Virus record (IMG/VR): IMGVR_UViG_3300035701_000015
Span: 12,009 to 76,008 of that record
DNA length: 64,000 nucleotides
DNA from: a virus
Taxonomy: Duplodnaviria > Heunggongvirae > Uroviricota > Caudoviricetes
Reading direction: 5' to 3' (one strand)
The translations under genes were made by a program, and so were the position numbers. Below the pieces are notes generated by a model, which searched no databases, was not told the origin of the DNA, and saw only the letters and a list, made by a program, of their open reading frames with translations. How positions within the stretch are numbered: position 1 is the first letter of the stretch; the number at the start of each line of letters is the position of its first letter. Shown here piece by piece: positions 9,360 through 62,940 of this stretch.

Positions 9360-9719
9360 ATGAACAAACAGATCACTCAAAATCTTTTAAAAGATCGAAC
9401 ATGTAATAATTGCGACCGCATGGAGGGTTACCGTCTCAGGCACGACCTCCCAATATGCTCTTTGAAAAAGAGAAGCAAGTATAAAACTTGTGAAGAATGG
9501 ACCGAAAGAGGTTATTTGTCATCCTCTATGTCGAGTAAAGAGTGGGTTGATATTATGTCAGTGAAAAAAGAAATAGTCTTTCCAATTAATCGCGCTGCTA
9601 CAATTCGAGGAGTACGAGTTTATATCACTGATACACGTGATCTCATTTATGAACAAAATTTTCCAGAATCTTATGTTGTTCCAACTGTGGGTGGTTCTAT
9701 AACTCTAAAGTTTACATAA
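9360..9719 (+). CDS. small Cys-motif family protein (LLKDRTCNNC)
   Basis: N-terminal QNLLKDRTCNNC motif shared with at least 9 other ORFs in this window. Confidence 0.5.
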   Translation: MNKQITQNLLKDRTCNNCDRMEGYRLRHDLPICSLKKRSKYKTCEEWTERGYLSSSMSSKEWVDIMSVKKEIVFPINRAATIRGVRVYITDTRDLIYEQNFPESYVVPTVGGSITLKFT

Positions 9720-9730
9720 GATAAAACTAA

Positions 9731-9850
9731 CAGCTGAAGTGATGAGTTTATCGGAAACTAGTTGTCTAGGTTCGACTCCTGGCTCCCATTTTTGGGATGT
9801 AGTGTAATGGTAGCACACCAGTCAAAACAACTTATTACGTTTACTTGCTG
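9731..9850 (+). ncRNA. modular structured RNA (Y4) with degenerate permuted tRNA-like module
   Basis: Outer stem cagc/gctg with TGAAG. T-arm-like tagg-ttcgact-cctgg, T-rich-capped acceptor-like hairpin, D-arm gtgt-aatggta-gcac (9802-9816), 3' CTTGCTG. Confidence 0.3.
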
Positions 9851-9927
9851 TTATTTATGAGTGGGATTATCAAAAAGAGTGAAGAGATAAGGTAGAAAAA
9901 TATGCGGAAATCCATTTAATTGATGAA

Positions 9928-10000
9928 GGGGCTGTAGCTCAACTGGGAGAGCATCACAATGGCATTGTGAGGGCAGAGAGTTCGACCCTCTCCAGCTCCA
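9928..10000 (+). tRNA. tRNA-Ala (anticodon GGC)
   Basis: Acceptor ggggctg/cagctcc, anticodon arm tcaca-atGGCat-tgtga, T-arm gagag-ttcgacc-ctctc. Confidence 0.55.
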
Positions 10001-10011
10001 AGGGCGACAAT

Positions 10012-10341
10012 ATGAAGTACGAAGTTGAGAAAACGTCTGAAAAAGAGAAAACGATAAAGCGTTTAAAAGACTGCTGGCACGAAATAATTACATCAAGAGG
10101 ATCAGATAAAGTAGCTAGATGTGAGCATTGTGATTATGGTAAATTTGAACTCAAATGGTATTGCCCTAAAAGCCCAGATCACATATGCCATTGGAAATCT
10201 ATGTTTGATTATCCAAGCGGTCTTAGATATGTATTTTCTATCAATGGCGAAAAGATATATTTGAAAGATAAAAGCTATAAGGGGAATTACGAATCACCAG
10301 ACTATTGTATATTTTGTGGTGAACCAGAAGAAAGAAAATGA
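10012..10341 (+). CDS. Cys/His-rich zinc-finger-like protein
   Basis: Start trimmed to the ATG after tRNA-Ala; CEHCDY...CPKSPDHICH...CIFCG. Confidence 0.5.
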   Translation: MKYEVEKTSEKEKTIKRLKDCWHEIITSRGSDKVARCEHCDYGKFELKWYCPKSPDHICHWKSMFDYPSGLRYVFSINGEKIYLKDKSYKGNYESPDYCIFCGEPEERK

Positions 10342-11177: not shown

Positions 11178-11203
11178 GGGTCATCTTCGGATGACCCTTT
11201 TTT
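11178..11203 (+). terminator. rho-independent terminator
   Basis: gggtcatc-TTCG-gatgaccc followed by TTTTTT. Confidence 0.6.
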
Positions 11204-11407
11204 ATTGGGAGCTTACAATAAAAATCTTAGCGTTTTGTAAAAAATGTGGGACTATAATTGGATTGACAAGAAAAGATCTTGCAATTACACTTTATCCATG
11301 CGATTTTTGTGGATATCATATTGGAATTCGTCTTCATTGGGTATGCATTTGTGGCACTAAAAGTAATTATGAATGTTTAAATAGAGAGCCTTGTGGTAAT
11401 TAACAAT

Positions 11408-11894: not shown

Positions 11895-12143
11895 ATGGAC
11901 GAGAATAAACTAAAGAAGTTGAAGTCTATCAACTACAAAGTCAAAAGCTGTTGCGGTATGTGTGCTTACAGTAAGTTTAAGAATAGAGATTATTGGGGAA
12001 TTTGCAGAGCACATAAATATAAGCACGAAAAGCATACGGACTCGGCAAGACAGCTTTCAATTTATTGTTTTGGTAGTTGTCCTTACTTCAAAGTCAGTCA
12101 ATATTTCAAAGACGATTTGGGAGTATGGACTGAATTCTTATAA
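11895..12143 (+). CDS. Cys-rich small protein
   Basis: CCGMC...C...CFGSC. Confidence 0.45.
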   Translation: MDENKLKKLKSINYKVKSCCGMCAYSKFKNRDYWGICRAHKYKHEKHTDSARQLSIYCFGSCPYFKVSQYFKDDLGVWTEFL

Positions 12144-12845: not shown

Positions 12846-13292
12846 TTGATCGTTAGACAGTTCAGAGGTTCTTTTGAATTTCTTAGTAATTTTCAAGAGA
12901 TACGTCCTTACATGTACATCGACGGAAAATATTGGTCAACTGTAGAACATTATTTTCAAGCAATGAAGACGCTTGATGAAGAAGAGCAAGAAAAAATCAG
13001 ATTAGCTACGCATCCAGCAATTTCTAAAATATTAGGAAAGAAAGTTCATCTGAGAGAAGATTGGGACAAAGTAAAAGAAGAGATCATGCTCAAGGCTCTA
13101 AGAGTCAAATTCGAGAACATTGAACTAAGACAGAAGTTGCTAGATACGGATGATGATGTTCTCGAAGAGGGCAACACCTGGAATGATCGTTATTGGGGCA
13201 AAGATCTCAACACTGGGTTTGGCCACAACAGACTCGGAAATCTTTTGATGCAAGTCAGAACAGAAATAAAAGAAGATGAAAATAATAGCTGA
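12846..13292 (+). CDS. NADAR/YbiA-like domain protein (DUF1768)
   Basis: FLSNF...YWSTVEHYFQAMK...REDWDKVK...ALRVKF...WG.DLNTGFGHNRLGNLLMQVR. TTG start. Confidence 0.6.
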   Translation: MIVRQFRGSFEFLSNFQEIRPYMYIDGKYWSTVEHYFQAMKTLDEEEQEKIRLATHPAISKILGKKVHLREDWDKVKEEIMLKALRVKFENIELRQKLLDTDDDVLEEGNTWNDRYWGKDLNTGFGHNRLGNLLMQVRTEIKEDENNS

Positions 13293-13482
13293 ATTAGAAT
13301 TATATGCAGATAAAGATTGCCCTGACGATGAAGATCATGATTACGATAATTGTCCTTATTGCCAAGCAAGACACGCTATTAACGAAATCGGAGAAATAGC
13401 GGAAGAGTACTTGAAGAAAATAAATATGATGGCGAAAAAAGAAAATTATATATCCCAACCTTGGTGGCAATTGGGACGTTAA
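13276..13482 (+). CDS. hypothetical protein
   Basis: ORF. Confidence 0.4.
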   Translation: MKIIAELELYADKDCPDDEDHDYDNCPYCQARHAINEIGEIAEEYLKKINMMAKKENYISQPWWQLGR

Positions 13483-15674: not shown

Positions 15675-16256
15675 ATGATAAAAAAGCTTAGGGCGGTAAT
15701 AATTTTATTCTTATTTTTTGCTCTTTGCTTTTCTACTCAAGGCGAGACTAAATGGTATCGAACTCAGGCAGGAACCGGAATAGGAAACTGCGGACCCACT
15801 TGTGTTTCTATGGCTATTGCCTGGTCAACTCAAAAGAATGTACCTGTTGAAACTATCAGAGATTTTCTCGGGTATCAGAGGGAAAATGGCGCAACTGACT
15901 TTATGGAGTTAGCCCTAGCTCTCAGAGAGTGGAAAGCTATCTATGACATAGAAGCCATCAACAATCTTTCAGGACTAAAAGAATTAGTTAAAAGAAAAGA
16001 TATGATAGTTATTGTCCTTATCAATACGTCTGGAATCACAACAGCACCTCTAGAAGATATAGATATTTTCGGCAAGAATTATGATTATGAAGTTGGCCAC
16101 TATATAATTCTTACAGACGTTATCAGCAACTATTTCGAAGTACAAGATCCGCTTCCTGGAGGCTCAGACAGAAGGTATAAGATTCAGGAAGTATGGGACT
16201 CGATGAAAGACCGCAAAGTAATCCTCATAAGAAATTTGAATATAAGAAATGTCTAA
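15675..16256 (+). CDS. secreted papain-like (C39-like) cysteine peptidase
   Basis: Signal peptide; GNCGPTC catalytic Cys context and a downstream HYIIL His. Confidence 0.45.
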   Translation: MIKKLRAVIILFLFFALCFSTQGETKWYRTQAGTGIGNCGPTCVSMAIAWSTQKNVPVETIRDFLGYQRENGATDFMELALALREWKAIYDIEAINNLSGLKELVKRKDMIVIVLINTSGITTAPLEDIDIFGKNYDYEVGHYIILTDVISNYFEVQDPLPGGSDRRYKIQEVWDSMKDRKVILIRNLNIRNV

Positions 16257-16455
16257 TGGGTCTGAGATTATACTAAATCTCCTACGAGACAGAACTTGTG
16301 ATAATTGTTATTATGGACAAGGCCTCTTCTGTCACGAAGATACTAAAATATTTCCCGAAGAAAATACTTGTAATCTTTGGGAACCTTGCAAACATTATAC
16401 TGGGAAACCTTATACTGGAAGTTCACAGCTCGAAAGTTTCGAATCTGAGTTATGA
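16249..16455 (+). CDS. small Cys-motif family protein (LLRDRTCDNC)
   Basis: Family motif. Confidence 0.45.
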   Translation: MSNGSEIILNLLRDRTCDNCYYGQGLFCHEDTKIFPEENTCNLWEPCKHYTGKPYTGSSQLESFESEL

Positions 16456-25497: not shown

Positions 25498-25821
25498 ATG
25501 AAGTTTAGAAAAGCCACTAACGACGAAGCAACAGGCACTCACCAAACGGGTATATTGCACACAGACTATCATAAAATAGTTAGTGTATTTGGTGAGCCCG
25601 AAGAAAGTAATTCAGATAAAATTCAAGTGGAATGGATTTTAAAATTTGAAGATAGAACTATAGCTACTGTATATGATTATAGAGCAATAAGAATTCCTGA
25701 AAAAAATAAAGATTGGTACATCGGCGGAAAAAACAAAAAATCTGTATATTATGTACTTGCTCTTGTTTTAAAACATTATAGAGCTTTAATAAAAGATGTA
25801 TTTGAGGCTAATTTAAAGTAA
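25498..25821 (+). CDS. hypothetical protein
   Basis: ORF. Confidence 0.45.
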   Translation: MKFRKATNDEATGTHQTGILHTDYHKIVSVFGEPEESNSDKIQVEWILKFEDRTIATVYDYRAIRIPEKNKDWYIGGKNKKSVYYVLALVLKHYRALIKDVFEANLK

Positions 25822-44660: not shown

Positions 44661-44682
44661 TTGATCTTTTAAATATTTTGAA

Positions 44683-44934: not shown

Positions 44935-44939
44935 GCAAA

Positions 44940-44969: not shown

Positions 44970-44980
44970 TTGGAGATTAG

Positions 44981-46249: not shown

Positions 46250-46342
46250 CATATCTTGTGGTTAAGCTTTCGCCGTTAAAAACATACAAATAGTTTCGAT
46301 GCTTCTATATAATGTAAGTAAAATCTTTCGTAGGAGCGCAAC

Positions 46343-49125: not shown

Positions 49126-49695
49126 ATGTCGTTGCAGATCAATAAAGCAGATATGGATCAAGCTTGGGTAGATAGGAAGAATAGCGATAAGTTCTATAAG
49201 TATCTCTATGACATCGCCAACCACCAAGTTTCTAAAAAAGGCATTGACTTTTATGAGCGATCTGAATATGTTCAATTTGCCGTGATGAAATGCTTTAAAC
49301 ATGAAGGTGCGTTCACACCGTCTAAGGGTGCTGCTTATTCTTTCTTCTGGAAACAAATTTCTTTGGCTATAGCTTACAAGCAAAGAAAAGAAGCTCGAAG
49401 AAATAACAAAGCTCGAACTTTTTATGTTGAACAAGAAAAAGTTCTTGACTGGATCGAGCGTGAGCACGAAAATAAAGGAGTACCTTTTTCTGAGATAGTG
49501 GGCATTGAAGAAGTTCTTAAAATTAAGCGTGCATTCAAGAGATATAATAACGAGCACAAATCTAAACTCAAGCCCAACAAAGAAAATACTGTCACAGTTC
49601 TTAAGTGGAACACAAAGAAAAATCCAGAATTTCTAAATGATTTCACCACACTAAAACACATCTTCGCGAGGTGGGTTGAGTGTCCCGCGAAATAG
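49126..49695 (+). CDS. hypothetical protein
   Basis: ORF. Confidence 0.5.
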   Translation: MSLQINKADMDQAWVDRKNSDKFYKYLYDIANHQVSKKGIDFYERSEYVQFAVMKCFKHEGAFTPSKGAAYSFFWKQISLAIAYKQRKEARRNNKARTFYVEQEKVLDWIEREHENKGVPFSEIVGIEEVLKIKRAFKRYNNEHKSKLKPNKENTVTVLKWNTKKNPEFLNDFTTLKHIFARWVECPAK

Positions 49696-49952
49696 AAAAA
49701 CAAAAAACGATAAATCTACTTAAGGGTAAAACGTGCCCAGATTGTATCTATTATTCTTCTGGTGATAAGTGTCAAGGGGCCGAAGATCTCCTCTTGCGCG
49801 CGACAGAAAAAAGACAGTGCCCAGAAACATTTTCTTGTGTAAGATGGATATCTAGAAACGAATTTTTTACTCGGAACTTAGGTTTGAGTCTAACTGTCCA
49901 AAAAGGAAAAATATTAAAAATTTCTATTACGCCGGTAGGTAATAACGCGTGA
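49680..49952 (+). CDS. small Cys-motif family protein (INLLKGKTCPDC)
   Basis: First of three tandem paralogs with EIEKQKxINLLK. Confidence 0.5.
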   Translation: MSREIEKQKTINLLKGKTCPDCIYYSSGDKCQGAEDLLLRATEKRQCPETFSCVRWISRNEFFTRNLGLSLTVQKGKILKISITPVGNNA

Positions 49953-50227
49953 CTAAACGAGAAATAGAGAAACAAAAAATTATAAATCTACTCAAGAATA
50001 GAATTTGTTCAAACTGTGCTTTTAATTCTCCCATTAATAGATGCCAACAACCTGACTCAGCGGGACAGTGGTACACTGTAGAATGGCCAAAAACACTTTC
50101 TTGTGAAAGATGGAGGAGTAAAAATGATTGGAAACCTCTTGAAATTGATGATGTTCAAAAATTAATTGAAGAATCGGGAAAACTAATTAAGCAATATGAA
50201 AAGACAAAGAAAAAATGGGGAGTCTGA
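49949..50227 (+). CDS. small Cys-motif family protein (INLLKNRICSNC)
   Basis: Tandem paralog. Confidence 0.5.
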   Translation: MTKREIEKQKIINLLKNRICSNCAFNSPINRCQQPDSAGQWYTVEWPKTLSCERWRSKNDWKPLEIDDVQKLIEESGKLIKQYEKTKKKWGV

Positions 50228-50375
50228 AAAACAAAGAGTTATAAATATACTTAAGGATAAAACTTGCCAAAACTGTTATTATTTTTCCAGAGAATGCGTT
50301 TTAGGCGTTTTAGACTCTTGTTCAAAATGGAGATCAACTCAAGTCTTTCCGCCACTTAGTGATCAACTCGAATAG
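50196..50375 (+). CDS. small Cys-motif family protein (INILKDKTCQNC), 59 aa
   Basis: Third tandem paralog; below the ORF track cutoff. Confidence 0.4.
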   Translation: MKRQRKNGESEKQRVINILKDKTCQNCYYFSRECVLGVLDSCSKWRSTQVFPPLSDQLE

Positions 50376-50738: not shown

Positions 50739-50751
50739 CTATTCACATTAA

Positions 50752-50780
50752 AAGCCCCTCAATCACTGAGGGGCTTTTTT
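50752..50780 (+). terminator. rho-independent terminator
   Basis: gcccctca-atcac-tgaggggc followed by TTTTTT. Confidence 0.75.
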
Positions 50781-51669: not shown

Positions 51670-52191
51670 TTGATGCTTTTGAAATATAGTTTGATTCGAG
51701 AGGTAGAGTATCCAATCAGAGGTCACGCAACAGATGCGGGAATCGATTTCTTCATGCCACAGATAAATGAAAAATTCATCTCAGATTTTAATGCGCTAAA
51801 AGCAAATAAAGGAGCTAGATTGGATAACGAAGAATTAACTTTGCTTCCAAGCTTTAATGCTTTGATACCATCTGGCGTGAAAGTAGAAATACCGTTTGGC
51901 CACATGGGACTCTTTCTTAATAAATCTGGAGTAGCTTCGAAAAAAGATTTGATTATCGGCGCTCAGGTCGTCGACACTTTTTATAGTGGCGAAATTCATA
52001 TTGATCTGCACAATGTGGGATCAGAAATAATCATAATTGTACCGAATGAAAAATTAGCTCAGATGGTAATTGTCCCCGTTCTGAATTGTGATCTAACTGA
52101 AGTTTCAGAAGACATGTTATACGATTGGATGAAAGAGAATGAATACAGAAATGAAAGCGGTTTTGGTAGCACAGATAAGAAAAAGTCTTAA
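51670..52191 (+). CDS. dut: dUTPase (trimeric type)
   Basis: ATDAGIDFF...GVASKKDLIIGAQVVDTFYSGEIHIDLHNVG. Confidence 0.6.
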   Translation: MMLLKYSLIREVEYPIRGHATDAGIDFFMPQINEKFISDFNALKANKGARLDNEELTLLPSFNALIPSGVKVEIPFGHMGLFLNKSGVASKKDLIIGAQVVDTFYSGEIHIDLHNVGSEIIIIVPNEKLAQMVIVPVLNCDLTEVSEDMLYDWMKENEYRNESGFGSTDKKKS

Positions 52192-52513
52192 GTTATTTTT
52201 TAAAAATAAAATAGTCAGAATAGTAGCTTTGTCTTTAGCTATATTCATAGTAGTAGGTTTAATACTTTTCTTCGTTCCGAAATTAATAATAAGTGTAATC
52301 TTGCTTGCCTACGGAGGTGCACCTAATTTTGCTGACAAAGCATTAACAATAGCTGTTCTTCTTCTTAATGCAATTCTATACCCGATATATTTGCTTGAAA
52401 GTGTGAAAGCTTATAATAAATATGAAAAAATTAAGTCTCAAAGAAAAAACGATAAAACTTTTAAGAAATCAAACTTGCGCCAGCTGTTCGAGATCTTTAA
52501 AAGCGGCCAATAA
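52139..52513 (+). CDS. membrane protein
   Basis: Three hydrophobic segments. Confidence 0.4.
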   Translation: MNTEMKAVLVAQIRKSLKLFFKNKIVRIVALSLAIFIVVGLILFFVPKLIISVILLAYGGAPNFADKALTIAVLLLNAILYPIYLLESVKAYNKYEKIKSQRKNDKTFKKSNLRQLFEIFKSGQ

Positions 52514-52554
52514 ATTTTGGTGTGATATTAGAAAAGATTATTACGATTCGAGAC

Positions 52555-52677
52555 ATGGATAAAGAAATCCGAAACAGACTCAGTGGTGAGCTTCAGAGAT
52601 TATCTCCTGAGGAATCAACGTATCTCAAAGAAGAAATCAAAGCGTTAACTACTCATGAGAGTAGTTTGTTGCGATAA
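52555..52677 (+). pseudogene. duplicated fragment of the dnaE-C 5' end
   Basis: Encodes ...LSPEESTYLKEEIKALTTHE, resembling ...LNSEEQTYLAEEIKALKTQE at the start of 52756. Confidence 0.35.
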
Positions 52678-52755: not shown

Positions 52756-55005
52756 ATGACGAAGAAAAACTTAATAGAATTTTTGCAGATGAGATCGAAA
52801 GAATTAAACAGCGAAGAGCAAACTTATTTAGCTGAAGAAATAAAAGCTCTCAAAACTCAAGAAGATGATCTCAAAAATCTTTTAAATTTAATAGATTCAA
52901 AGTCTAAATTAGAAAATCATAATAATGTTTTATCATTGTATCTTCTTGGCCTTTCTGAATATCCCAAAAAATTAAGACATTATTATTCGCTTGCCGATAT
53001 GGCCGATGTGGACATGGATTTTAGTCCCGACGGCCGCGACAAGATCAAAACATGGCTTAAAGAGAAATTCGGCGAAAAGAATTGTGTAAGCATTGGAACT
53101 TATGGAACTCTTGGTGTAAAAGGCTCAGTCCAAGAAATTTCTCGGGCTTATGGGATAAAGCCAAGTGAATACATTCAGATTAGCAAATTAGTTTCTGATG
53201 ACGACAAAGATTTAGACGTAGATGAAATCAGAGAGAAGTATCCCCAAGTAGAAGAGTTCCTTACCAATCATCCAGAAATTACTGATACCATCATAAAACT
53301 TATTGGAATGAAAAAGAATATTGGTCAACACGCTGGTGGTTTTGTTGTAAGCTCAGATAATGTATATGATAACATTCCAATTGTAAAAGCTAACAAGGGC
53401 GATGTTACTGGGTGGCAAGAATCTGGTGCTATAAAAGAATTAGAGGCACTTGGTTGGATTAAAGTTGATATTCTTGGTCTTTCTTGTGTAGAGCAAATCC
53501 GGTTATGTGTTGAAGAGATTAACCGAAAATATCCAGGAGCTATAAAAGGCGATCCATATCTTCTTCCTGTGGACGATCCCAAAGTATATGATTTTATTAA
53601 TACTCTTCAACTTGAAAACGTGTTTCAAATGGAGTCTAAAGTTTTCAAAGAAGCAGTAAGAATGATCCGACCGAGAAGCTTGCAAGATATATCAAACATT
53701 TCAACTTTGATTCGGCCTGGAGCAGCCTGCACCGTTGAAGAGTATAAGAAATCAGAGAATGTGAACTTCAAAGAAATTCCGAAATGTTTGCACAAAGTGT
53801 ATGACCACACTCGAGGATGGATGTTATACCAAGAACAGTTGTTACAAATATTAAAAGAACTTGGCGGATTTTCTATTTTCGAAGCTGACAAAGTTCGAAG
53901 ACTTGTAAGAAAGATCGGTAAAGCTAAAACTTCTGATGCAAATAGAAGTGATATGTTGAAAGAGACAGATAAGTATAAGACAATCTATCAGAAGCATGCA
54001 ACTACAAAAATAGTTGAAGAAGATAAGTGGCTTCAAGCGAAAGCTGAGAAATATGCCAATAGCCAATGGGAAGCGTTAATGGGTCAAGCAAAATATTCTT
54101 TCAACATGCCACATTCTTATGCATATTCTTTGATGGGTTATGTTCAAGCTTATCTTAAATGTTATTACCCCATAGATTTTTGGACTGCTGCATTAAATAC
54201 AATCACTAGAGGCTTAGAGAAGCACGGTGAAAGCAGTTTGGGTAAATATATAAACTCTATCGACTCAATGGGCATACCAATCGAAAAACCCAACGTGAAT
54301 AAGTCGGGTATAAATTTTGAAGGCGATGAGGGAAAAATCTATTTTGCTCTTAGCTATATCAAAGATGTTTCGAATGGTGCCGAAGAAGTCATGAAATATA
54401 GACCCTATGAAGATTGGGATGATTTCTTGAACAAAGCTGTTGAGAATAAAATTAATAAAAGAATAGCAAAAGGTTTGATCTTTTCTGGTGCTGTAGATTT
54501 TGAAGATGATATGGAAGCAAGAAGTTATAAGTGGGGTCTTTATCTGAAAGAAAAAGCTAAAGGCAAAAAGAACAAAGAAGAACTTGAAGAATACAAAAAT
54601 AACATGCCAGAGAAATATGAGCTCATACAAATGGAATATGAATATTGCAAATACAGTTTTACAGGCATCGATAAGTTTTTGCAGAGTTCAAAATATAAGA
54701 ATCTGACAACAATTTCTGACAGAGATAAAGCTAAAAAACTTTGGGTTCTTATTGGGTATATTTCTGACGTCGCAACAAAGAAAAGTAAAAAGTCTGGTAA
54801 TGAATATGTGCTAATAACTGTTACAGATTTCAGAGACGCAATAAGTGTTTATGCTTTTGGAGATGAATTTAGAAGTAAAATCCTCGGTACTTATAAAAAA
54901 GGCCAACTCATAAAGATTGGCGTTAAAAACGAATCTAATTGGCTCAAACTCCCTTTTGAAAACGAGTATAATCATTGTTTCCCAATAGAGATACTTTCAT
55001 CTTAG
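52756..55005 (+). CDS. dnaE: DNA polymerase III alpha (DnaE) C-terminal portion
   Basis: DMDFSPDGRD, GQHAGGFVV, FQMESK...LIRPG, GWMLYQEQLLQI, FNMPHSYAYSLMGY align to the DnaE core. Lacks the PHP domain. Confidence 0.7.
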   Translation: MTKKNLIEFLQMRSKELNSEEQTYLAEEIKALKTQEDDLKNLLNLIDSKSKLENHNNVLSLYLLGLSEYPKKLRHYYSLADMADVDMDFSPDGRDKIKTWLKEKFGEKNCVSIGTYGTLGVKGSVQEISRAYGIKPSEYIQISKLVSDDDKDLDVDEIREKYPQVEEFLTNHPEITDTIIKLIGMKKNIGQHAGGFVVSSDNVYDNIPIVKANKGDVTGWQESGAIKELEALGWIKVDILGLSCVEQIRLCVEEINRKYPGAIKGDPYLLPVDDPKVYDFINTLQLENVFQMESKVFKEAVRMIRPRSLQDISNISTLIRPGAACTVEEYKKSENVNFKEIPKCLHKVYDHTRGWMLYQEQLLQILKELGGFSIFEADKVRRLVRKIGKAKTSDANRSDMLKETDKYKTIYQKHATTKIVEEDKWLQAKAEKYANSQWEALMGQAKYSFNMPHSYAYSLMGYVQAYLKCYYPIDFWTAALNTITRGLEKHGESSLGKYINSIDSMGIPIEKPNVNKSGINFEGDEGKIYFALSYIKDVSNGAEEVMKYRPYEDWDDFLNKAVENKINKRIAKGLIFSGAVDFEDDMEARSYKWGLYLKEKAKGKKNKEELEEYKNNMPEKYELIQMEYEYCKYSFTGIDKFLQSSKYKNLTTISDRDKAKKLWVLIGYISDVATKKSKKSGNEYVLITVTDFRDAISVYAFGDEFRSKILGTYKKGQLIKIGVKNESNWLKLPFENEYNHCFPIEILSS

Positions 55006-55600
55006 TATCATCGTGTTTTAACTGGACGAAATCATACTCAGAGAATATCTGAAGTATTTCTTTTTGTCTCTTTACATCTCTATCGTTTAGAGAGCCATTT
55101 TTATAGTGCTTATTCTCATTCCACTCTATTATAAGCTTCAGATCAAAGTTGATATAATCAACCCAATATCCTAATTCTTTTATATAGAATTCCCCACTAT
55201 TAGTAGCATATCTACCAGATGTGTCGTGTGTCAAATCAAACTTTTCAAAGAATTCACATGCGGATTTGTTGAATGTGGGCATTATCCCACAAGTTGATTT
55301 TAGATAGCTTATCTGAGCTAATCTTAGTCTTCTTTTAGTTTCATCACTGTGTTTTCTCTCGCCACTTTTTGCATAACATTTAACAGAGCAATATATTTTA
55401 GCTCTCTTTCTTTTTCCATTGATTCTTCTCGGTATCTTTTTTCCACAAGTTTTACAAAATATAGATTTCATCATACTCTTGTGCTGGCACTTTAAAGAGC
55501 AATATATCGCTCTATTGATATGGCCATTACTCTTTCTATATTTCAGTATTTTGCTACATATTAGACATAATTTTCTCGGTAAATTTTCTATCTTTTTCAT
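54944..55600 (-). CDS. zinc-finger + PD-(D/E)xK (DUF559-like) putative homing endonuclease
   Basis: N-terminal CxxC pairs; C-terminal GYWVDYINFDLKLIIEWNENKHY. Confidence 0.4.
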   Translation of the reverse strand: MKKIENLPRKLCLICSKILKYRKSNGHINRAIYCSLKCQHKSMMKSIFCKTCGKKIPRRINGKRKRAKIYCSVKCYAKSGERKHSDETKRRLRLAQISYLKSTCGIMPTFNKSACEFFEKFDLTHDTSGRYATNSGEFYIKELGYWVDYINFDLKLIIEWNENKHYKNGSLNDRDVKRQKEILQIFSEYDFVQLKHDDTKMKVSLLGNNDYTRFQKGV

Positions 55601-57220: not shown

Positions 57221-58648
57221 ATGAAAGAATTAAATCCTAATTATGTTCAACTCCACACTCATTCTGTCGGGAGTCTCCGCGATGGGATCATGAAAGTAAG
57301 AGACCATGTGCAATTTGCTGTTCAGCATAAAAAGAAATTCGTATCAATAAGTGATCATGGATCTATTTCAGAATGGATAGAGCTTTATACTGATTGTGCT
57401 AAAGAGAAGATCCAGCCCATTTATGGAATTGAGGGCTATATTCATCTCGACCGAGACAAATATCTCGAAGAAAAGAACAGCGGTAGTAAACCAGGTCACA
57501 TTCTTTTGTTAGCCCAAAATGAAATCGGTTTCAAGAATATAGTAAGAGTTCATAATGATGCCTGGCAGCATTTTTACAAAAGACCGATAATGAGTTATGA
57601 TTATTTATTCGATCATACAGAGGGTATTATTGTTGGTACTGCTTGTATGGGTGGCACTCTATCAAAGTACCTTATAGCAAAAGATATTGTGGGAGCCGAC
57701 AATTTCATAGAAACGATGAAAGAGAAATTTCCAAATAGGTTCTTCGTAGAGCTTATGCTTATTGACATGGACGAACAAACAGAATTAAACAGACAGTTGA
57801 TTCAGATTGCTAAAAAGCACAAAGTTCCCGTGATAGTTGGCAATGATCCACATTATATGACAGCTGAGGACAATAAAGCCCACCAAATATCTTTACTTCT
57901 TCAAAGCAGTCAAACCGTTAAAGATCTTGAAAGCGGTAAAGGCTGGTCATTCTCAGCCCAAGACTTATGGATGAAGACAGAGAAAGACCTTTATCAAGAC
58001 TGGAAGAAGAAGTATAGCAAAGATCCAATCTTTACTGAAGAAGTATTCGTTGAAGCAACTTGGAACGTAAAGAAAATAACCGATACAATCGAAGAAATCT
58101 ATTTAGAGCATCCGCCAAGATTACCGAAATATAAAAACGGTAAGAAGCTTCTTGAGCAAATTACAGTTGATGGTTTTGCTGAAAAAGTTGAGGAAGGTAT
58201 AATTCCCCAAGATCGTGTTGATGAATATATAGATCGTATCAAGTATGAGCTCAAGACGATAGATGATTTAGATTTGATAGATTATTTCTTGCTTATCAAA
58301 GAGATTCATACTTTTTGTGATAAACATGCAATAGCAGTTGGTCCTGGAAGAGGATGTTTTATAAGAGGATCAAAAGTTAAGACAAAAGATGGATATAAAA
58401 ATATAGAAGAAGTACAAATTGGAGATGTGATATATAATAAAAATGGAACTGATTTAGTCGTAAATAAGTTTGATTACGAAGTAGACGAAGATCTGTGTAA
58501 ATTAATAATAGACGGCCAAGAAATAATTTGTACTTCAGAACATAAATTTGAAGTACTGCGAGAAAATAAAGTTTTTTGGATAAAAGCAAAAAATATAAAA
58601 GTTGATGATATGATAGTAAAAATAGACACTTACCAGAAAGATAAATAA
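57221..58648 (+). CDS. dnaE: DnaE N-terminal PHP domain fused to the intein N-terminal half
   Basis: HTHSVGSLRDG and ISDHGSISEW PHP motifs; ...VGPGRG then CFIRGSKVKTKDGYKNIEEV... (97 aa IntN-like); ends with TAA. Confidence 0.65.
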   Translation: MKELNPNYVQLHTHSVGSLRDGIMKVRDHVQFAVQHKKKFVSISDHGSISEWIELYTDCAKEKIQPIYGIEGYIHLDRDKYLEEKNSGSKPGHILLLAQNEIGFKNIVRVHNDAWQHFYKRPIMSYDYLFDHTEGIIVGTACMGGTLSKYLIAKDIVGADNFIETMKEKFPNRFFVELMLIDMDEQTELNRQLIQIAKKHKVPVIVGNDPHYMTAEDNKAHQISLLLQSSQTVKDLESGKGWSFSAQDLWMKTEKDLYQDWKKKYSKDPIFTEEVFVEATWNVKKITDTIEEIYLEHPPRLPKYKNGKKLLEQITVDGFAEKVEEGIIPQDRVDEYIDRIKYELKTIDDLDLIDYFLLIKEIHTFCDKHAIAVGPGRGCFIRGSKVKTKDGYKNIEEVQIGDVIYNKNGTDLVVNKFDYEVDEDLCKLIIDGQEIICTSEHKFEVLRENKVFWIKAKNIKVDDMIVKIDTYQKDK

Positions 58649-59657
58649 GTGCTTACTTGGGGGTGTCTAGTGGGCAACAAGCAAAAATTCCATAAGAGTA
58701 CAATTTACCCCAAAGAAATATACGATTTAAAAGTTGAAGAAAAACTTATACCCTTTGAAATTGCAAAAAAATATTTTTTAACTATTTTTAACTCTAAACT
58801 CGTTGTATGCTATAATTGTGTAAAATGCGGTAAATCTGGACATACGCAATTTAGACACTTAAAAAAAAGAAATACAGATAAACCATATTGTAATAATTGT
58901 TGGCTCAAGATGAAGACATCTGAAAATACTGCATGGCTAAAAAAGAACTCAGATACTCAGAAAATAATTCAGAATACCGACGAGGTAAAGAATAAAAATA
59001 GAAAAGCAGTAAGCTTATTCTGGAAAAATAATCCTGAAAAAATTATTGAGATGAGGAAAAAGATCTTATCTAATCCTAATGTAAAAAATTATAATTATAA
59101 CCATGGTTTTTTTATTCTCGAAAATGGAAATAAAATTCTTTTTGAAAGTAACTACGAACTTTTGTATATTTTATATTGCGACAAAAATAATATTCTAATA
59201 CGAAGATTCGAAGATAAAGATCACTTCATAAAATATAAAAACTCGATAAAAAATAAATTGTGCTTATATAAGCCAGATTTTATAATAAACGAAAAAACAA
59301 TAGTAGAGGTAAAGGGATCTAAAATAAACAAAGTGCTTTCTTATCAAATACCATTTTTAGAAAAAAAAGAAGCTTTAGAGAAATCAGGTCGAGAGCATAT
59401 ATTTTTATATAAAGAAGATATAAAGAAAATAAGTGGTATAAATAGATTTAGAAAAGGTAATAGAGAATTTGATAATTTAATCCTTTCTCTCTTGACTAGG
59501 AATAAAATAATTATTTCTTCTAAGAAATACAAGGAGTACTATCATGTTGGTGGGTAGAGTTGAGAGTGTAAGCAAAGTGAAATATGTTGGCCGAGTATAT
59601 GATTTGGGAGTGGAAAGAGATCCATCGTACAACGTTGAGGATTATATAGTACATAAT
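58355..59657 (+). mobile_element. intein in dnaE interrupted by an in-frame TAA and a frameshift (IntN - HEN ORF - IntC)
   Basis: Intein starts at Cys after GPGRG and ends at ...YIVHN before [14 protein letters not shown]. Confidence 0.55.
58649..59557 (+). CDS. homing-endonuclease-like ORF within/between intein halves
   Basis: Same frame as 57221..58648 directly after TAA; GTG start; CxxC pairs. Confidence 0.45.
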
Positions 59658-59780
59658 AGTGTTTCAGCATCTTTGGTAACTTTCGTTATAGGAATAACTA
59701 AACTCGATCCTATTAAGTATAACTTTATTTTTGAAAGGTTCTTGAATCCAGCCAGAAAGACGAGGTTGAAAATATTCTGA
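59544..59780 (+). CDS. intein C-terminal half + 40-aa DnaE extein fragment
   Basis: [38 protein letters not shown] | [31 protein letters not shown]... Confidence 0.5.
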
Positions 59781-60184
59781 TGAAACTATTCAGAAAAGAT
59801 AAAAATGAGATAATCCAAAAGAAAACTCTTAAAAATGAGATAATTGATTTGCTCAGAAATCAATCATGTCAAGGTTGTAAATATCTTTGCATATCGTATG
59901 ATACTACTAGAAAAACAGAATTTAAATTTTGCACTTTAGATACTAAAAATGGTTGCATCTTAGATTCAGAAGAAGTAAGAAGTTGTGAGAATTATGAACC
60001 AAGTATAAGAATAGCTGAAATTATCGTTCGACCCGATGATGGCAACAAGATAATATCAAAGGTAGACTTAATTCATTTATACGACAACAAAGAGATCAAA
60101 TTTTTGATAGAACAAAAAGGAGATGATTTGTTGGGTCGTGGTCCAGGAATCATAAGTTACCATATGCGACTTTACTTGGAGTAG
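59780..60184 (+). CDS. small Cys-motif family protein (IIDLLRNQSCQGC)
   Basis: Family motif. Confidence 0.45.
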   Translation: MKLFRKDKNEIIQKKTLKNEIIDLLRNQSCQGCKYLCISYDTTRKTEFKFCTLDTKNGCILDSEEVRSCENYEPSIRIAEIIVRPDDGNKIISKVDLIHLYDNKEIKFLIEQKGDDLLGRGPGIISYHMRLYLE

Positions 60185-60187: not shown

Positions 60188-60613
60188 GTGGTTGAACAAT
60201 CTGCAGGATGCGCAATAATAAAACATTTTAATGGAGTGCCGCATATACTCCTTGCACATGCTGCTGGCAACTGGAAACTTAAATTGATGGGTATTCCAAA
60301 AGGCCATGTTGAAGCTGATGAAGATCTAAAGAAAGCTGCTATCAGAGAAACTTATGAAGAGGTTGGGATCAAGCCAGATATACTCGACTATCTCGGTTCA
60401 GTAACGACTAATCAAGGTAAGAAAGTTCACGGTTATATCGCTCTTATGAAATCTGGCGATTTAGATGGTAAAAAAGCTACTAAGTTGCATAGATCAGAAA
60501 TAGATTACGCTAAGTTCTTTCCCATCGAAAATGCGGTCAATATGGTTTATGTGTATCAAAGACCTTTGATACAGAGAGCGAAAGAATATATTGAACGAGA
60601 ACATCTACGCTAA
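60188..60613 (+). CDS. NUDIX hydrolase
   Basis: Nudix box GIPKGHVEADEDLKKAAIRETYEEVGI. Confidence 0.65.
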   Translation: MVEQSAGCAIIKHFNGVPHILLAHAAGNWKLKLMGIPKGHVEADEDLKKAAIRETYEEVGIKPDILDYLGSVTTNQGKKVHGYIALMKSGDLDGKKATKLHRSEIDYAKFFPIENAVNMVYVYQRPLIQRAKEYIEREHLR

Positions 60614-60848
60614 ATTAGCAACTATTAATTTTCTAAAAGATTGGAACTGTATGAACTGTGCAAGATGTACAGTTCGAGGCAGAAATAAAAAAGTTGAGTT
60701 AGTACCGATTATCTCTCGGTCAGAACAAAGAGCTTATACTACATGCTGGGACTGGGCGCCTAGAGATGTTTTTCCAAACCAAGAAGACGCAAATATTTTC
60801 TTTTCTAGAGAATTAGATTACCCTGAACTATACAAACAAAAAACATGA
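60591..60848 (+). CDS. small Cys-motif family protein (INFLKDWNCMNC)
   Basis: Family motif. Confidence 0.45.
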   Translation: MNENIYAKLATINFLKDWNCMNCARCTVRGRNKKVELVPIISRSEQRAYTTCWDWAPRDVFPNQEDANIFFSRELDYPELYKQKT

Positions 60849-61135
60849 TAACTAATAAAAAAGAAAATACGATAGCATTACTTAAAGGTGATATCTGTAA
60901 AAACTGCATTTTTCTTATTCATAAAACAATGATAGATATATTAGAAAAAAATTATAAATTTTTAAAAAGATATGTAGTTTTAGAGGGCGATTATATATCG
61001 CTTAAACCACCTCATTGTGCTTATCTACATAATGGTCTCTTTACTCAAAAAAGCGAAGTCGATTTGTATGGCTGTTGTCAACATTATGTAGCTGTTATCC
61101 CTCATGTGAATGCTTCGATTCGAAGATATAATTAA
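60845..61135 (+). CDS. small Cys-motif family protein (IALLKGDICKNC)
   Basis: Family motif; tandem with the previous gene. Confidence 0.45.
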   Translation: MITNKKENTIALLKGDICKNCIFLIHKTMIDILEKNYKFLKRYVVLEGDYISLKPPHCAYLHNGLFTQKSEVDLYGCCQHYVAVIPHVNASIRRYN

Positions 61136-61138
61136 ACT

Positions 61139-62452
61139 ATGACACTAACACGTAAAGCGAAGAAAATAGTCAAGACTCTCCAGAAGAATGGCCATCAGGC
61201 CGTTTTTGCTGGAGGGAGTGTCAGAGATATGCTTCTTAGCAACACTCCTCACGATTACGACATAGCCACTTCTGCTACCCCCGAACAGGTCGAGTCTCTA
61301 TTCAAGAATACCAGGGCGGTGGGAAAAGCTTTCGGTGTAATACTCGTCAAATACAAGGATGTAGATTTTGAAGTGGCTACCTTCAGGTCTGACGGTCATT
61401 ATAGTGATGGCCGTCGACCTGATGAGGTCGTATTTACTACAATAGAAGAGGATGCTGCTCGCAGAGACTTTACAGTCAATGCGATGTTCTACAATCCTAT
61501 AAACAAGCAAGTCATAGACTATGTTAATGGTTTGCAAGACTTAGAAAACAAAGTTCTTCGGTTCGTCGGTAACGCTGAAGAGAGAATAAACGAAGATAAC
61601 CTCAGATTACTTCGAGCTGTAAGGTTCTCTCTTAAGCTCAACTTTGAAATGGACATTGCCTCTTTCAATCAAGTACGATTCAACGCTGAGAAGGTGCAGA
61701 ACGTAGCGCCCGAAAGAATACGCGAAGAACTTATGAAGATGATAGAACTCGGCAAACCTCGTAAGATGATACAGCTTCTGTTCCAAACGGGGCTCATGCA
61801 CCAGGTACTACCTGAAGTGGTAAATCTAAAGGGTTCTCCTCAGAATCCTGAGTTCCATCTTGAAGGAGATGTTCTAGAGCACACTATACTCGTGATGGAA
61901 AAGTTAGTTGGGCAAAATCCTTTAATGCAACTTGCCGGCTTGTTACATGACATAGCGAAACCCACTACTCTAGTCATAGAAGATGGGAGGCCTACCAATA
62001 AAGGGCACGATGCTGCAGGTGCCGACATGACTGAGACGATAATGCTTCGACTCAAGTTTTCTAATGATGAGATAGAGTTCGTGAAGAATCTCGTAGCCGA
62101 TCACATGAGGCACCACATAGCGAAAGAATTTAGAAAGTCTACTCTGAAGAGGTATCTGGCTTTGCCTTACTTCAACGAGCTTATGTTGTTGAATGAAGCT
62201 GACACTCTGTCTGCTTCTGGCAATCTGGAACACATAGAGTTTCTCAGAGAAAAAATGAGCGAATGGAAGCCCGAAGTAATAAGACCCAAGCCTCTTATAA
62301 CTGGTCTCGATCTTATAAAGCTTGGGTATAAGCCTGGTCCCATATTTACTACTATACTAGACCACGTATCAGATCTCCAACTTGAAGGTCAGATAGCAAA
62401 TAAAAATCAAGCTCTGAGGATGGTAAATGAGAACTACCCGCTGCCACGATAA
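61139..62452 (+). CDS. cca: tRNA nucleotidyltransferase (CCA-adding enzyme) with HD domain
   Basis: GGSVRDMLL...DYDIAT head domain; HD motif LLHDIAK...DH. Confidence 0.7.
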   Translation: MTLTRKAKKIVKTLQKNGHQAVFAGGSVRDMLLSNTPHDYDIATSATPEQVESLFKNTRAVGKAFGVILVKYKDVDFEVATFRSDGHYSDGRRPDEVVFTTIEEDAARRDFTVNAMFYNPINKQVIDYVNGLQDLENKVLRFVGNAEERINEDNLRLLRAVRFSLKLNFEMDIASFNQVRFNAEKVQNVAPERIREELMKMIELGKPRKMIQLLFQTGLMHQVLPEVVNLKGSPQNPEFHLEGDVLEHTILVMEKLVGQNPLMQLAGLLHDIAKPTTLVIEDGRPTNKGHDAAGADMTETIMLRLKFSNDEIEFVKNLVADHMRHHIAKEFRKSTLKRYLALPYFNELMLLNEADTLSASGNLEHIEFLREKMSEWKPEVIRPKPLITGLDLIKLGYKPGPIFTTILDHVSDLQLEGQIANKNQALRMVNENYPLPR

Positions 62453-62702
62453 TGACAAAGAAACGATCAAGAATGTTCTTCGAAATCGAGCTTGTGGAAA
62501 CTGTGAGCGCCACCGAAGTTTTAATAGTAATTGGCAACATTGTGCATTGAAAAGATACACACCAGAGTTCAACGTTTGTTCGCAGTGGAAAATGAGTTGG
62601 TCAGCTAAGGCGACTAAGCTTAATAATCACAGAGAGAAAATTGCCAAAAAGCGGAAAGCAAAGAGAGAAGCAAAGAGAGAAACGCCGAGCCTCATCTCTT
62701 AA
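62427..62702 (+). CDS. small Cys-motif family protein (NVLRNRACGNC)
   Basis: Family motif. Confidence 0.45.
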   Translation: MRTTRCHDNDKETIKNVLRNRACGNCERHRSFNSNWQHCALKRYTPEFNVCSQWKMSWSAKATKLNNHREKIAKKRKAKREAKRETPSLIS

Positions 62703-62940
62703 AAGACAAATACAGAAAACAAAAAGTATTGAAGTTATAAATATCCTCAAAGAGCAAGTATGTAGTAATTGTACTCACTCGAAGACTTGGGGCAAAAGAT
62801 CTTGCCAAAATCCATTCAAAATCAAAAATCACAAATCAACTGAAGCTCCCGAAATTAAAACTTGCAGACTATGGAAATTATCTACTAACTATAAGACTAT
62901 AGATGATTGGAGAAAAGAACGTAACCGCATAATTAAGTAA
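62641..62940 (+). CDS. small Cys-motif family protein (INILKEQVCSNC)
   Basis: Family motif. Confidence 0.4.
   Translation: MPKSGKQREKQREKRRASSLKRQIQKTKSIEVINILKEQVCSNCTHSKTWGKRSCQNPFKIKNHKSTEAPEIKTCRLWKLSTNYKTIDDWRKERNRIIK

Follow-up and report, generated by a model that had tools for sequence, protein, structure and literature searches.

A HiPIP-like setting for a [4Fe-4S] cluster is described in proteins other than the HiPIPs themselves (PF01355), which in their canonical form are periplasmic Tat substrates. Glycyl radical enzymes have small subunits that are HiPIP-like in structure and have been assigned probable structural or solubility roles; those of BSS (β/γ), HPAD (γ) and MASS (β/γ) are stand-alone proteins of about 60-90 aa with a HiPIP-like [4Fe-4S] knot, which act as accessory or structural parts of a larger enzyme and not as electron carriers (PMC13450708). 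The Wbl proteins of Actinobacteria and actinophages are small [4Fe-4S] factors that bind sigma-A and feature a HiPIP-like cluster environment (PMC13013590, PMC6954389).

The locus described here, a window of 64,000 nt (positions 12,009 to 76,008 of IMG/VR record IMGVR_UViG_3300035701_000015) from a large uncultivated phage, features 11 plus-strand ORFs of 46-134 aa that carry a common motif. Our preferred reading, to which we assign a probability of about 45%, is that they encode phage-specific small metalloprotein paralogs with a HiPIP-like [4Fe-4S] knot that may dock as accessory subunits. The glycyl radical enzyme subunits are alike in being small and stand-alone, but they bear no significant sequence similarity to the family and are neither phage proteins nor multi-copy; one family member weakly matches the HPAD small-subunit model (E 0.011), such subunits were absent from a PDB search with the family profile at E up to 10, and the annotated window ORFs include no glycyl radical enzyme. 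The likeness to Wbl proteins is a functional analogy only: in both cases the proteins are small, have four cysteines and occur as several paralogs in one genome, Wbl proteins too are encoded by phages, and some members carry basic tails. The Wbl cysteine pattern is different (C-xn-C-x2-C-x5-C), no sequence similarity to the family was detected, and according to reports only Actinobacteria and their phages have Wbl proteins, whereas the phages that bear this family have a GC content of 34-39%.

Copies in the window and their common pattern

The first-pass annotation of this DNA proposed a multi-copy family of small proteins, and all ten of the ORFs that it listed are present on the plus strand at the positions it gave; its count of at least eleven exceeded its own list, and the eleventh proved to be a truncated copy. 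An HMM of 72 metagenomic relatives, none of them from this phage, retrieves exactly these 11 ORFs from 1033 six-frame segments of the window (E 5.7e-18 to 4.8e-5), the next match lying at 0.062. The loose expression [ILVMF][LIVK][KR]x(2,3)xCxxC gives 12 six-frame matches, 11 of which are the family ORFs, against 2.4 expected and a maximum of 6 in 50 shuffles.

The common pattern comprises an N-terminal helix motif, (I/L)xNLLKxxTCxNC, followed by two more cysteines and a Trp. All four Cys columns (C1 to C4) are invariant across 82 aligned members, and this Cys4 set almost certainly binds metal. A Trp at C4+3 is present in 93% of members, an Asn before C2 in 72%, an aromatic residue or His at C2+2 in 82% and Leu/Ile at C4-6 in 46%; Leu and Trp columns are conserved in at least 90% of family sequences. 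The Trp had been noted together with further cysteine pairs, and in place of pairs we found single residues, C3 and C4, which are 7-29 positions apart. No Pfam, PHROG or NCBIfam model matches the family above threshold, and no enzymatic domain, signal peptide or Tat motif was found, the N-terminus being a short hydrophilic helix. AF2 predicts a helix with short strands; in model 1, of the 49949 copy, these are a helix at 3-15, four short strands and a helix at 66-90 (pLDDT 74). Fold searches gave no match, HiPIPs included.

Two copies are found in the tRNA region, where no obvious partner gene adjoins them. The first (9360-9719, 119 aa, E 5.7e-18 with the external-only HMM, as for all values in this section) is flanked by tRNA-Lys and tRNA-Ala and continues beyond its Cys4 domain into a β-rich C-terminal extension in common with its best relative, the metagenomic protein P0024 (32% over 121 aa). 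The second (16249-16455, 68 aa, E 2e-15), which was placed first in alignment A3 and in AF2 model 2, is a compact Cys4 domain, its start overlapped by 8 nt by the end of a C39-like peptidase ORF. The tandem arrays proposed earlier, one triple and two pairs, are all present and all overlapping. The triple array comprises a 90 aa copy with a GTG start (49680-49952, E 1.7e-11), its nearest relative and neighbor (49949-50227, 92 aa, E 5.2e-14; 37.5% identity) with a C-terminal helix, and a minimal domain of 59 aa (50196-50375, E 2.4e-9) in which the C2-C3 and C3-C4 spacings are each 7; successive overlaps are 4 nt and 32 nt. The truncated copy (52422-52562, 46 aa, E 7.3e-8) keeps the motif and C1-C3 without C4 and the Trp, and is probably decaying; it lies between the dUTPase and the C-part of DnaE, overlapping ORF 52139-52513 in another frame, and one or two intact copies occupy this position in the related loci L003 and L018.

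The copy at 59780-60184 (134 aa, E 3.6e-9), which has additional cysteines and a domain at its C-terminus, overlaps the stop codon of the last DnaE N-part exon with its own ATG (TGATG). The remaining copies surround the CCA-adding enzyme. Upstream, a spacing outlier with a TTG start (60591-60848, 85 aa, E 3.1e-6), in which C3 is just 2 residues past C2 (CxxCxxC), overlaps the next copy by 4 nt; the Logan gene caller places its start 20 codons further downstream, which would cut the motif. That next copy (60845-61135, 96 aa, E 4.8e-5), immediately upstream of the enzyme, has a long C2-C3 insertion and a Tyr in place of the Trp after C4. Immediately downstream lies a copy of the 'CSQW' subfamily (62427-62702, 91 aa, E 3e-17), whose C-terminal tail is conserved and strongly basic; it overlaps by 62 nt a copy with a TTG start and a basic N-terminal extension (62641-62940, 99 aa, E 6.6e-12).

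Protein-level conservation, distribution and divergence

The motif might stem from a repeated nucleotide element (promoter, terminator or other), the refutation that the first-pass annotation had named, or from chance in AT-rich sequence. Direct repeats do occur: at 70-89% over 35-90 nt they are confined to the recently duplicated triple array, the repeat family D6 spans the motif in five copies (69-82% over 39 nt), and AT-rich codons favor a K/N/I/L-rich motif. Yet the conserved residues differ in their synonymous codons, with CTT, CTC, TTA and CTA at the invariant Leu (TTA versus CTN) and AAA, AAG, CGA and AGA at the K/R position (Arg as AGA versus CGA), and mean pairwise identity at codon positions 1/2/3 is 0.60/0.66/0.46. 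The codons thus vary synonymously, with the lowest conservation at third positions, and this refutation fails. Moreover, 11 of 11 matches are in frame within plus-strand ORFs, promoter-like sites are at chance level, and the HMM of independent metagenomic proteins reaches E 6e-18. Shuffles, codon analysis and that HMM rule out a repeated-DNA or chance origin, to which we assign practically no probability; this is a genuine protein family whose conservation acts at the protein level.

A metagenomic search, which had been suggested as a check, covered 1.84 billion proteins and yielded 84 representatives at E<1e-3, almost all 50-115 aa long. Three of these proteins (P0010, P0014 and P0038) are tandem double domains, and no other informative domain fusion was found. 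All genomic contexts examined are phage-like or IMG/VR contigs, and narrow searches of GenBank phages and of 185,579 reference genomes gave no family match. Three pattern matches in GTDB genomes were rejected as family members. The family looks specific to phages, as had been claimed.

Related low-GC uncultivated phage contigs carry arrays of 4-8 copies, and loci L003, L007 and L008 have further genes in common with the window. The position after the DnaE N-part is kept in L002, L003 and L018, and those before and after the CCA-adding enzyme recur in three or four syntenic phages. The 60845 copy has a positional ortholog at L003 10699-10935, with L(K/N)PPHC in common; the 62427 copy has orthologs in P0020 (50%), P0083 and P0015, its position being occupied also in L003 (12344-12748) and L018 (9210-9548); and the orthologs of the 62641 copy, P0008 (L018 9478-9819) and L003 12702-12974, retain the same basic N-terminus. 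Between the 59780 copy and its L002 ortholog P0004 (65% identical), the single close pair on which the estimate rests, dN/dS is 0.13. Most paralogs are old, at conserved positions and under purifying selection, which qualifies the earlier description of a family under diversification; that description holds in that copy number varies between relatives and that family copies diverge much faster (about 30-35% identity between syntenic phages) than neighboring core genes (56-70%).

Similarity to HiPIPs and DUF7140

In a search of the PDB with the family profile, HiPIPs account for 10 of 11 matches, with all four ligand cysteines aligned, at E-values of just about 0.01-0.1 (best 0.015); zinc-finger proteins were absent among the 11. 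The search is reciprocal, as the Pfam HIPIP model also matches the family consensus. That consensus matches only DUF7140 (PF23601; E 0.013) and HIPIP (E 0.026) in Pfam, each below its curated gathering score (15.8 bits versus 27 and 15.2 versus 22). An hhalign comparison with the C. vinosum HiPIP gave a probability of 56% (P 1e-4), and an alignment of 24 HiPIPs gave 68% (P 5e-5) in the same register. Real HiPIP cores receive a mean of 16.4 bits from the family HMM, and Cys-fixed shuffles 1.4 +/- 2.6; for each of the 24 HiPIPs, 0 of 200 such shuffles equaled the real score, although these 24 tests are not independent because the HiPIPs used are related to one another.

Both families feature C-x-N-C-x-[FY], then C, then [LIVM]-x5-C-x2-W, with the cysteines in one register and the Asn, aromatic and Trp signature residues aligned besides. 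Unlike HiPIPs, the family is phage-encoded and multi-copy, lacks the N-terminal half of about 40 residues and has its own conserved helix there, and features Thr before C4 where HiPIPs have Gly-[YW]. DUF7140, an uncharacterised 42-residue domain and the best Pfam match of the consensus, is covered at model positions 4-41 with the full Cys4 knot; three family members match it (best E 7.9e-5), none of them a copy from the window. No publication on DUF7140 was found, so the match carries no functional information. Judged from sequence, HiPIPs and DUF7140 appear to be the sole consistent remote similarity of the family, at borderline significance though well clear of the Cys-fixed shuffles; with HiPIPs as the only detectable resemblance, the family may represent undescribed phage metal-cluster proteins.

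Candidate metal and role

Small phage proteins with four cysteines very often bind zinc, and four cysteines that chelate one Zn2+ in a small binder or regulator are a quite possible alternative, if one that we would hesitate to adopt. Zinc ribbons and treble-clef fingers are also small, with a CxxC at the start and four cysteines in total; single members weakly match Zn_ribbon_ACC (0.0057), Zn_Ribbon_Prim (0.042) and TFIIB (0.047), two members weakly match a haloarchaeal zinc-finger family, the AF2 helix and short strands are compatible with many zinc folds, and the fold searches returned no HiPIP. The family nevertheless lacks the second CxxC knuckle, and each zinc-ribbon family is matched by at most one member; the ribbon or treble clef suggested earlier is not indicated. 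The fold searches returned no zinc fold either. ORF 11191-11403 of this window, a genuine zinc ribbon, matches Zn_ribbon_RPB9 at 2.4e-4, the PDB is rich in zinc fingers and yielded none, and the residues around the cysteines fit the HiPIP signature beyond cysteine spacing. Overall, a zinc-binding phage domain under diversification is partly supported.

The same signature would suit true HiPIPs for electron transfer, encoded by auxiliary metabolic genes that would serve host respiration or photosynthesis during infection. This is very improbable, and we do not think that the proteins are soluble electron carriers: besides the sub-threshold HIPIP scores and the absence of export signals, a single redox carrier is hard to reconcile with 4-11 copies in each phage that diverge from one another and vary in their tails and extensions, and the neighbors are replication, nucleotide and tRNA genes rather than genes of energy metabolism. 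Alternatively, the copies may be fast-evolving host-takeover or anti-defence effectors, each aimed at its own host protein or defence system, in which the Cys4 knot (with any metal) is a folding scaffold and proximity to DnaE and the CCA-adding enzyme has no meaning. Tandem arrays, varying copy number, rapid divergence, confinement to phages and small size without enzymatic domains are consistent with such effectors, which we consider unlikely given that individual paralog positions are conserved in three or four diverged phages, that subfamily traits such as basic tails are retained, that the single pair compared shows no positive selection, and that the scans run, which left out PADLOC defence-system models, gave no defence link.

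We infer the metal, fold and function of the family as follows. The 11 paralogous genes, one truncated, would encode small cytoplasmic metalloproteins of an undescribed family restricted to one clade of uncultivated phages that are large, low in GC and rich in tRNAs. In each protein, an amphipathic helix at the N-terminus (xTKNLLKxx) would precede a knot of four cysteines, with the pattern C-x-N-C-x-[YFH], about 12 residues, C, then about 14 residues ending [LI]-P-x3-T-C-x2-W, that bears the signature of the HiPIP cluster-binding half. Its cysteines may hold a buried [4Fe-4S] cluster, which the conserved Leu, Tyr/Phe and Trp would shield, or alternatively zinc, and the knot would be a minimal rigid scaffold for fast-evolving surfaces and tails. 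Fixed genome positions of these old paralogs, the apparent translational coupling of one copy to the DnaE N-part, the two copies that precede and two basic-tailed copies that follow the CCA-adding enzyme, and analogy suggest that the proteins dock singly, as accessory or regulatory subunits, onto the nucleic-acid machinery of phage or host, for replication, tRNA or transcription. The analogues that we have in mind are the actinophage WhiB-like [4Fe-4S] proteins and the small glycyl radical enzyme subunits with their HiPIP-like knot. A radical-SAM enzyme is also among the products of this phage, which so already depends on host Fe-S assembly.

A phage-restricted family of Cys4 mini-proteins

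The ten ORFs in which the first-pass annotation had noticed an N-terminal NLLKxxTCxNC-type motif are all present as described, and an eleventh copy was found at 52422–52562 (+), a truncated ORF of 46 aa that keeps the motif and three cysteines and lacks the fourth cysteine (C4) and the Trp. A loose regular expression gave 12 matches in six frames against 2.4 expected, with 11 of the 12 in frame within + strand ORFs. An HMM built from 72 related proteins, all from other metagenomes (the external-only HMM), recovered exactly 11 ORFs among 1033 six-frame segments (E 5.7e-18 to 4.8e-5; next-best segment 0.062), and the earlier description of the family is accurate. Ten window copies feature the N-terminal helix with its invariant Leu, four cysteines (C1–C4) and an aromatic residue at C4+3, which is Tyr in place of Trp in copies 59780 and 60845 (copies are named by their start in the window). 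Other small Cys-rich ORFs lie between tRNA genes (9967–10341, 11191–11403, 11895–12143 and 13276–13482). One of these, 11895–12143, shows the pattern CxxCxY...C...CxxF and was considered as a twelfth copy; its four cysteines align, its N-terminus is family-like, and an HMM built from the window copies gives it E 0.088, but it was rejected because the external-only HMM misses it.

Conservation acts at the protein level. The first-pass annotation had asked whether the motif might instead arise from a repeated nucleotide element, and this does not hold: codons for the invariant Leu include CTT, CTC, CTA and TTA, those at the Lys/Arg site AAA, AAG, AGA and CGA, conservation at codon positions 1, 2 and 3 is 0.60, 0.66 and 0.46, lowest at the third, and nucleotide repeats among the copies were found mainly inside a recently duplicated triple array. 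A sigma-70 promoter scan of the window returned matches at chance level and is uninformative on expression timing.

An exhaustive HMMER profile search of 1.84 billion cluster representatives returned 84 proteins at E<1e-3, which, minus one spurious eukaryotic protein, are 48–139 aa long and share a common architecture. Word-indexed protein searching was nearly blind to the family, giving 4, then 6 matches, mostly from the same phage. An 82-sequence alignment has four invariant Cys columns, as well as a Leu and a Trp shared by at least 90% of sequences. The family signature comprises a helix of ~15 residues (xTKNLLKxx) followed by T-C1-x-N-C2-x-[YFH], then ~12 residues to C3 and ~14 to C4, with [LI]-P-x3-T before C4 and x2-W after it. 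Searched individually, the window copies had no significant match in Pfam or PHROG, and NCBIfam models run against the 82 members gave only noise.

All genomic contexts examined are phage-like; these comprise the syntenic loci L003/L004, L018 and the fragment L002, seven IMG/VR contigs, and loci L005 and L019. The seven IMG/VR viral contigs, of 6–106 kb (six of them 35–106 kb), were detected by scanning for KNLLKxxTCxNC as a degenerate DNA pattern; protein 59780 as a query against IMG/VR gave no match. Family-bearing contigs have a GC content of 34–39%, those with more than ~3 kb of retrieved sequence carry 4–9 detectable copies, often in tandem, and L003, L007 and L008 have other genes in common with the window. 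Among GenBank phages, tblastn with copy 49949 or with the consensus, which was possibly masked as low complexity, gave no match. The degenerate pattern also matched three contigs in 185,579 GTDB reference genomes (Treponema, Pyrinomonadaceae and Crocinitomicaceae); about one match was expected and the family HMM rejects all three, so these were treated as chance. In the contexts and genomes searched the family is restricted to phages, as had been suggested. A literature search found nothing on phage HiPIP-like proteins (HiPIP stands for high-potential iron-sulfur protein), on DUF7140 or on comparable Cys-rich phage paralog families. The Cys4 mini-proteins form a genuine, phage-restricted multi-copy family that had not been described before; its remote similarity to other families, judged by sequence comparison, is borderline.

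Conserved gene positions and divergence of the paralogs

Most window copies have their nearest relative in another phage rather than in a window paralog. Such cross-phage pairs, formed with metagenomic relatives from the profile search, include 59780–P0004 (65%) and 62427–P0020 (50%), as well as 62641–P0008 and 9360–P0024; the tandem pair 49680/49949 alone are mutual nearest relatives. The window, L003 and L018 have copy positions in common. One copy directly follows the N-part of DnaE, its start overlapping the DnaE stop in the window and also in L002 and L003. The CCA-adding enzyme is preceded by one or two copies and followed by two, of which the first carries 'CSQW' and a C-terminal tail that is basic, the second a basic N-terminal extension. 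In the relatives, one or two further copies lie between the dUTPase and the DnaE C-part, the place of the truncated copy in the window. Between the window and L003, core genes are 56–70% identical, whereas positional-ortholog copies are ~30–35% identical or undetectable by BLAST. The closest family pair has a dN/dS of 0.13, against 0.074 for the adjacent NUDIX gene. Positional orthology, fast divergence and dN/dS together indicate old paralogs, each of them kept individually and evolving under purifying selection; local duplication, decay and loss of copies also occur. The proposal that the family is diversifying therefore stands in part: the copies are fast-evolving outside the Cys4 scaffold, but they are old retained paralogs under purifying selection.

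The Cys4 site: HiPIP-like cluster or zinc

A PDB-wide profile search at E up to 10 returned 11 matches, 10 of which are HiPIPs (best E 0.015), and these align the four cluster ligands, the Asn of CxNC, the aromatic residue at C2+2 and the Trp at C4+3. Against 24,736 Pfam models the family consensus matched two only, both below their gathering scores: DUF7140 (PF23601; 15.8 bits, E 0.013, threshold 27 bits) and HIPIP (PF01355; 15.2 bits, E 0.026, threshold 22 bits). At E<0.1 each model is matched by 3 of the 82 members, none of them from the window, with best values of 7.9e-5 for DUF7140 and 0.012 for HIPIP. Profile–profile comparison with hhalign gave a probability of 56% against the C. vinosum HiPIP and 68% (P 5e-5) against a 24-HiPIP alignment, in the same register.

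The objection that any Cys4 spacing would do was addressed by shuffling HiPIP cores with their cysteines kept in place. The family HMM scores real HiPIP cores at a mean of 16.4 bits (range 9.0–21.4) and the shuffled cores at 1.4 ± 2.6 bits (99th percentile 9.5); the real score is never reached by the shuffles for 24/24 HiPIPs, which are not independent of one another, and a shift is seen in the reverse comparison as well (Mann-Whitney P 9e-28). Since real cores score so far above these shuffles, the similarity exceeds cysteine spacing; by database E-values it is still borderline.

The PROSITE-type signature of HiPIPs is C-x2-C-x(8-16)-C-x(10-13)-C, and position C4+3 is aromatic. The family has this HiPIP-type ligand pattern, with a median C2–C3 spacing of 12 and C3–C4 spacing of 14; position C4+3 is Trp, Phe or Tyr in 100% of members (Trp in 93%), Asn precedes C2 in 72%, and C2+2 is aromatic or His in 82%. 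The two groups differ before C4, where HiPIPs have Gly-[YW] and the family x-Thr, and at the N-terminus. The HiPIP precursors retrieved (alignment A4) feature an extension of ~37 residues with an invariant RR, whereas in the family C1 is preceded by a median of 15.5 residues, mostly hydrophilic, with no RR and no hydrophobic leader; the twin-arginine export feature of HiPIPs is thus absent from the family.

Zinc is the main competing occupant of the Cys4 site, and the first-pass annotation had favored a zinc-binding domain, naming the zinc ribbon and the treble clef as folds to look for. Those folds use two knuckles, or a knuckle and a helix-start pair, whereas the family has a single conserved CxxC, with C3 and C4 each standing singly, 7–29 residues apart. 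Scattered matches to zinc-ribbon Pfam models do occur (E 0.006–0.05), but each model is matched by at most one of the 82 members, while a genuine zinc ribbon encoded in the window, ORF 11191–11403, is recognized by Zn_ribbon_RPB9 at 2.4e-4. Structural prediction favors neither side: three fold searches matched neither a HiPIP nor a zinc ribbon nor any other fold, and the AF2 models of copy 49949 (pLDDT 74, 11-sequence alignment) and copy 16249 (pLDDT 71.5, 82-sequence alignment) both begin with the N-terminal helix, after which come short strands or irregular structure, with the cofactor left out by AF2. HiPIPs are themselves small, poor in regular secondary structure and organized around their cofactor. 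A WhiB-like (Wbl) assignment finds no counterpart among the Pfam or NCBIfam matches of the family, and the Wbl motif, C-xn-C-x2-C-x5-C, differs from its Cys pattern. The zinc-ribbon or treble-clef reading lacks support; we tentatively replace it with a HiPIP-like reading, and estimate at about 50% the probability that the Cys4 site holds a [4Fe-4S] cluster in a HiPIP-like environment; zinc would be the less probable occupant, though a serious contender.

If a [4Fe-4S] cluster is bound, the family would represent a minimal HiPIP-like module of ~40 residues plus a helix, would bring HiPIP-type chemistry into viruses and the cytoplasm, and would imply that a phage lineage invests host iron-sulfur assembly in an entire set of small proteins with regulatory or accessory roles. 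To our knowledge, phage use of host Fe-S assembly for such small proteins is so far known only from actinophage WhiB-like proteins. The window also encodes a radical-SAM enzyme whose C-terminal domain is that of lysine-2,3-aminomutase (25808–26884, − strand; 56% identity to a gene in IMG/VR locus L007), which shows that the phage relies on host Fe-S cluster assembly already. Even with zinc at the site, the family serves as a clean marker for large, tRNA-rich phages of an uncultivated clade.

Possible roles and the genomic setting

The invariant Cys4 site with its conserved hydrophobic and aromatic shell, the lack of a signal peptide, the variable tails and the conserved gene positions are what the analysis establishes. 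A periplasmic electron carrier is unlikely, as the family lacks the export features of HiPIPs. The proteins could instead be accessory or regulatory subunits that dock onto nucleic-acid machinery, a role we advance with some reserve; the best leads for it would be the copy coupled to DnaE and the copies with basic tails on either side of the CCA-adding enzyme, and the paralogs beside these two genes are testable candidates for polymerase or tRNA-enzyme partners. There are precedents in which small Fe-S proteins that are HiPIP-like, or whose cluster has a HiPIP environment, work as binding subunits and not as electron carriers, namely the small subunits of glycyl-radical enzymes (PMC13450708) and, in Actinobacteria and their phages, the WhiB-like proteins (PMC13013590, PMC6954389). 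A live alternative to docking subunits is that the copies are fast-evolving host-takeover or anti-defence binders without a fixed partner; their rapid divergence speaks for it, their conserved gene positions against it. Taken to its full extent, the docking reading would make these the first phage-encoded HiPIP-type [4Fe-4S] proteins: a minimal, cytoplasmic, oxygen-tolerant knot that has expanded, within one clade of large uncultivated phages, to up to eleven or more specialized paralogs in each genome, acting as accessory subunits, sensitive to iron, redox state or NO, of the machinery for replication (DnaE), tRNA maturation (CCA-adding enzyme) or transcription. We consider this complete scenario doubtful; if true, it would constitute a non-actinobacterial counterpart of the WhiB-like proteins.

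The window (GC 37%, nearly all genes on the + strand) belongs to a 77.6-kb JGI metagenome contig and was also assembled in SRR11719878. Megablast with 15 kb found no close relative among GenBank phages, and no cultured phage has a DnaE C-part more than 31% identical to the one encoded here. The annotated gene set is typical of a large phage, comprising the radical-SAM enzyme, a Ro60/TROVE protein, MoxR-type ATPases with DUF2201 partners, dCMP deaminase, dUTPase, split DnaE, NUDIX, CCA-adding enzyme, PTH2, NADAR and M23 peptidase. Thirty-two tRNA genes, all on the + strand and covering most amino acids, are interspersed with small ORFs between 471 and 37157. One of them (3231–3303) has a CTA anticodon, is labeled 'Pyl' by ARAGORN and looks like an amber suppressor; amber-codon recoding was rejected, as TAG read-through lengthens window ORFs no more than read-through of other stops and so gives no sign of recoding in this window. 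The Ro60/TROVE RNA-binding protein with a vWA domain (29704–31326; Pfam E 7e-31 and 4e-20; PHROG 850) co-occurs here with the 32 tRNAs, CCA-adding enzyme and PTH2. A second paralogous expansion occupies 39674–48860, with two AAA/MoxR-like ATPases (39674–42100 and 46343–47479) and three DUF2201 metallopeptidase/VWA-like proteins (42100–42930, 42927–44207 and 47472–48860).

DnaE is both split and permuted, its C-terminal part (finger/HHH domains, 749 aa; 52756–55005) lying upstream of the N-terminal PHP part (57221–59780), an order also seen in L003 and L018. The N-part contains an intein (within 58400–59780; start junction GPGRG/CFIRGSK, end IVHN/SVSASLVTF), which is in turn broken up by a separate ORF of 302 aa in a different frame (58649–59557) that has no Pfam match and is possibly a homing endonuclease; the interrupted intein may be a split intein. 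The corresponding junction in L002 is uninterrupted. Between the DnaE parts, a 218-aa ORF (54944–55600, − strand) with repeated CxxC pairs and a weak DUF559-like endonuclease match is on these grounds probably a mobile endonuclease; L018 has a NUMOD3 endonuclease, also on the minus strand, at the equivalent place. Upstream of the C-part, a short ORF (52522–52677) contains '...LSPEESTYLKEEIKALTTHESSL', which resembles '...LNSEEQTYLAEEIKALKTQEDDL' at the start of the C-part (52756–52880); this points to a partial duplication of the C-part gene at its 5' end, adjacent to the truncated family copy.

A conserved ORF of 189 aa (49126–49695), with 58% identity in L003, lies immediately upstream of the triple array. 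It had no match in Pfam or PHROG and non-significant similarities in the PDB (sigma factor E 0.81, MvaT 0.66); a sigma-factor assignment, for which the PDB match at E 0.81 was the sole support, was dropped. The operon ends at a strong hairpin terminator (50750–50778) that faces a convergent one at 50817–50795.
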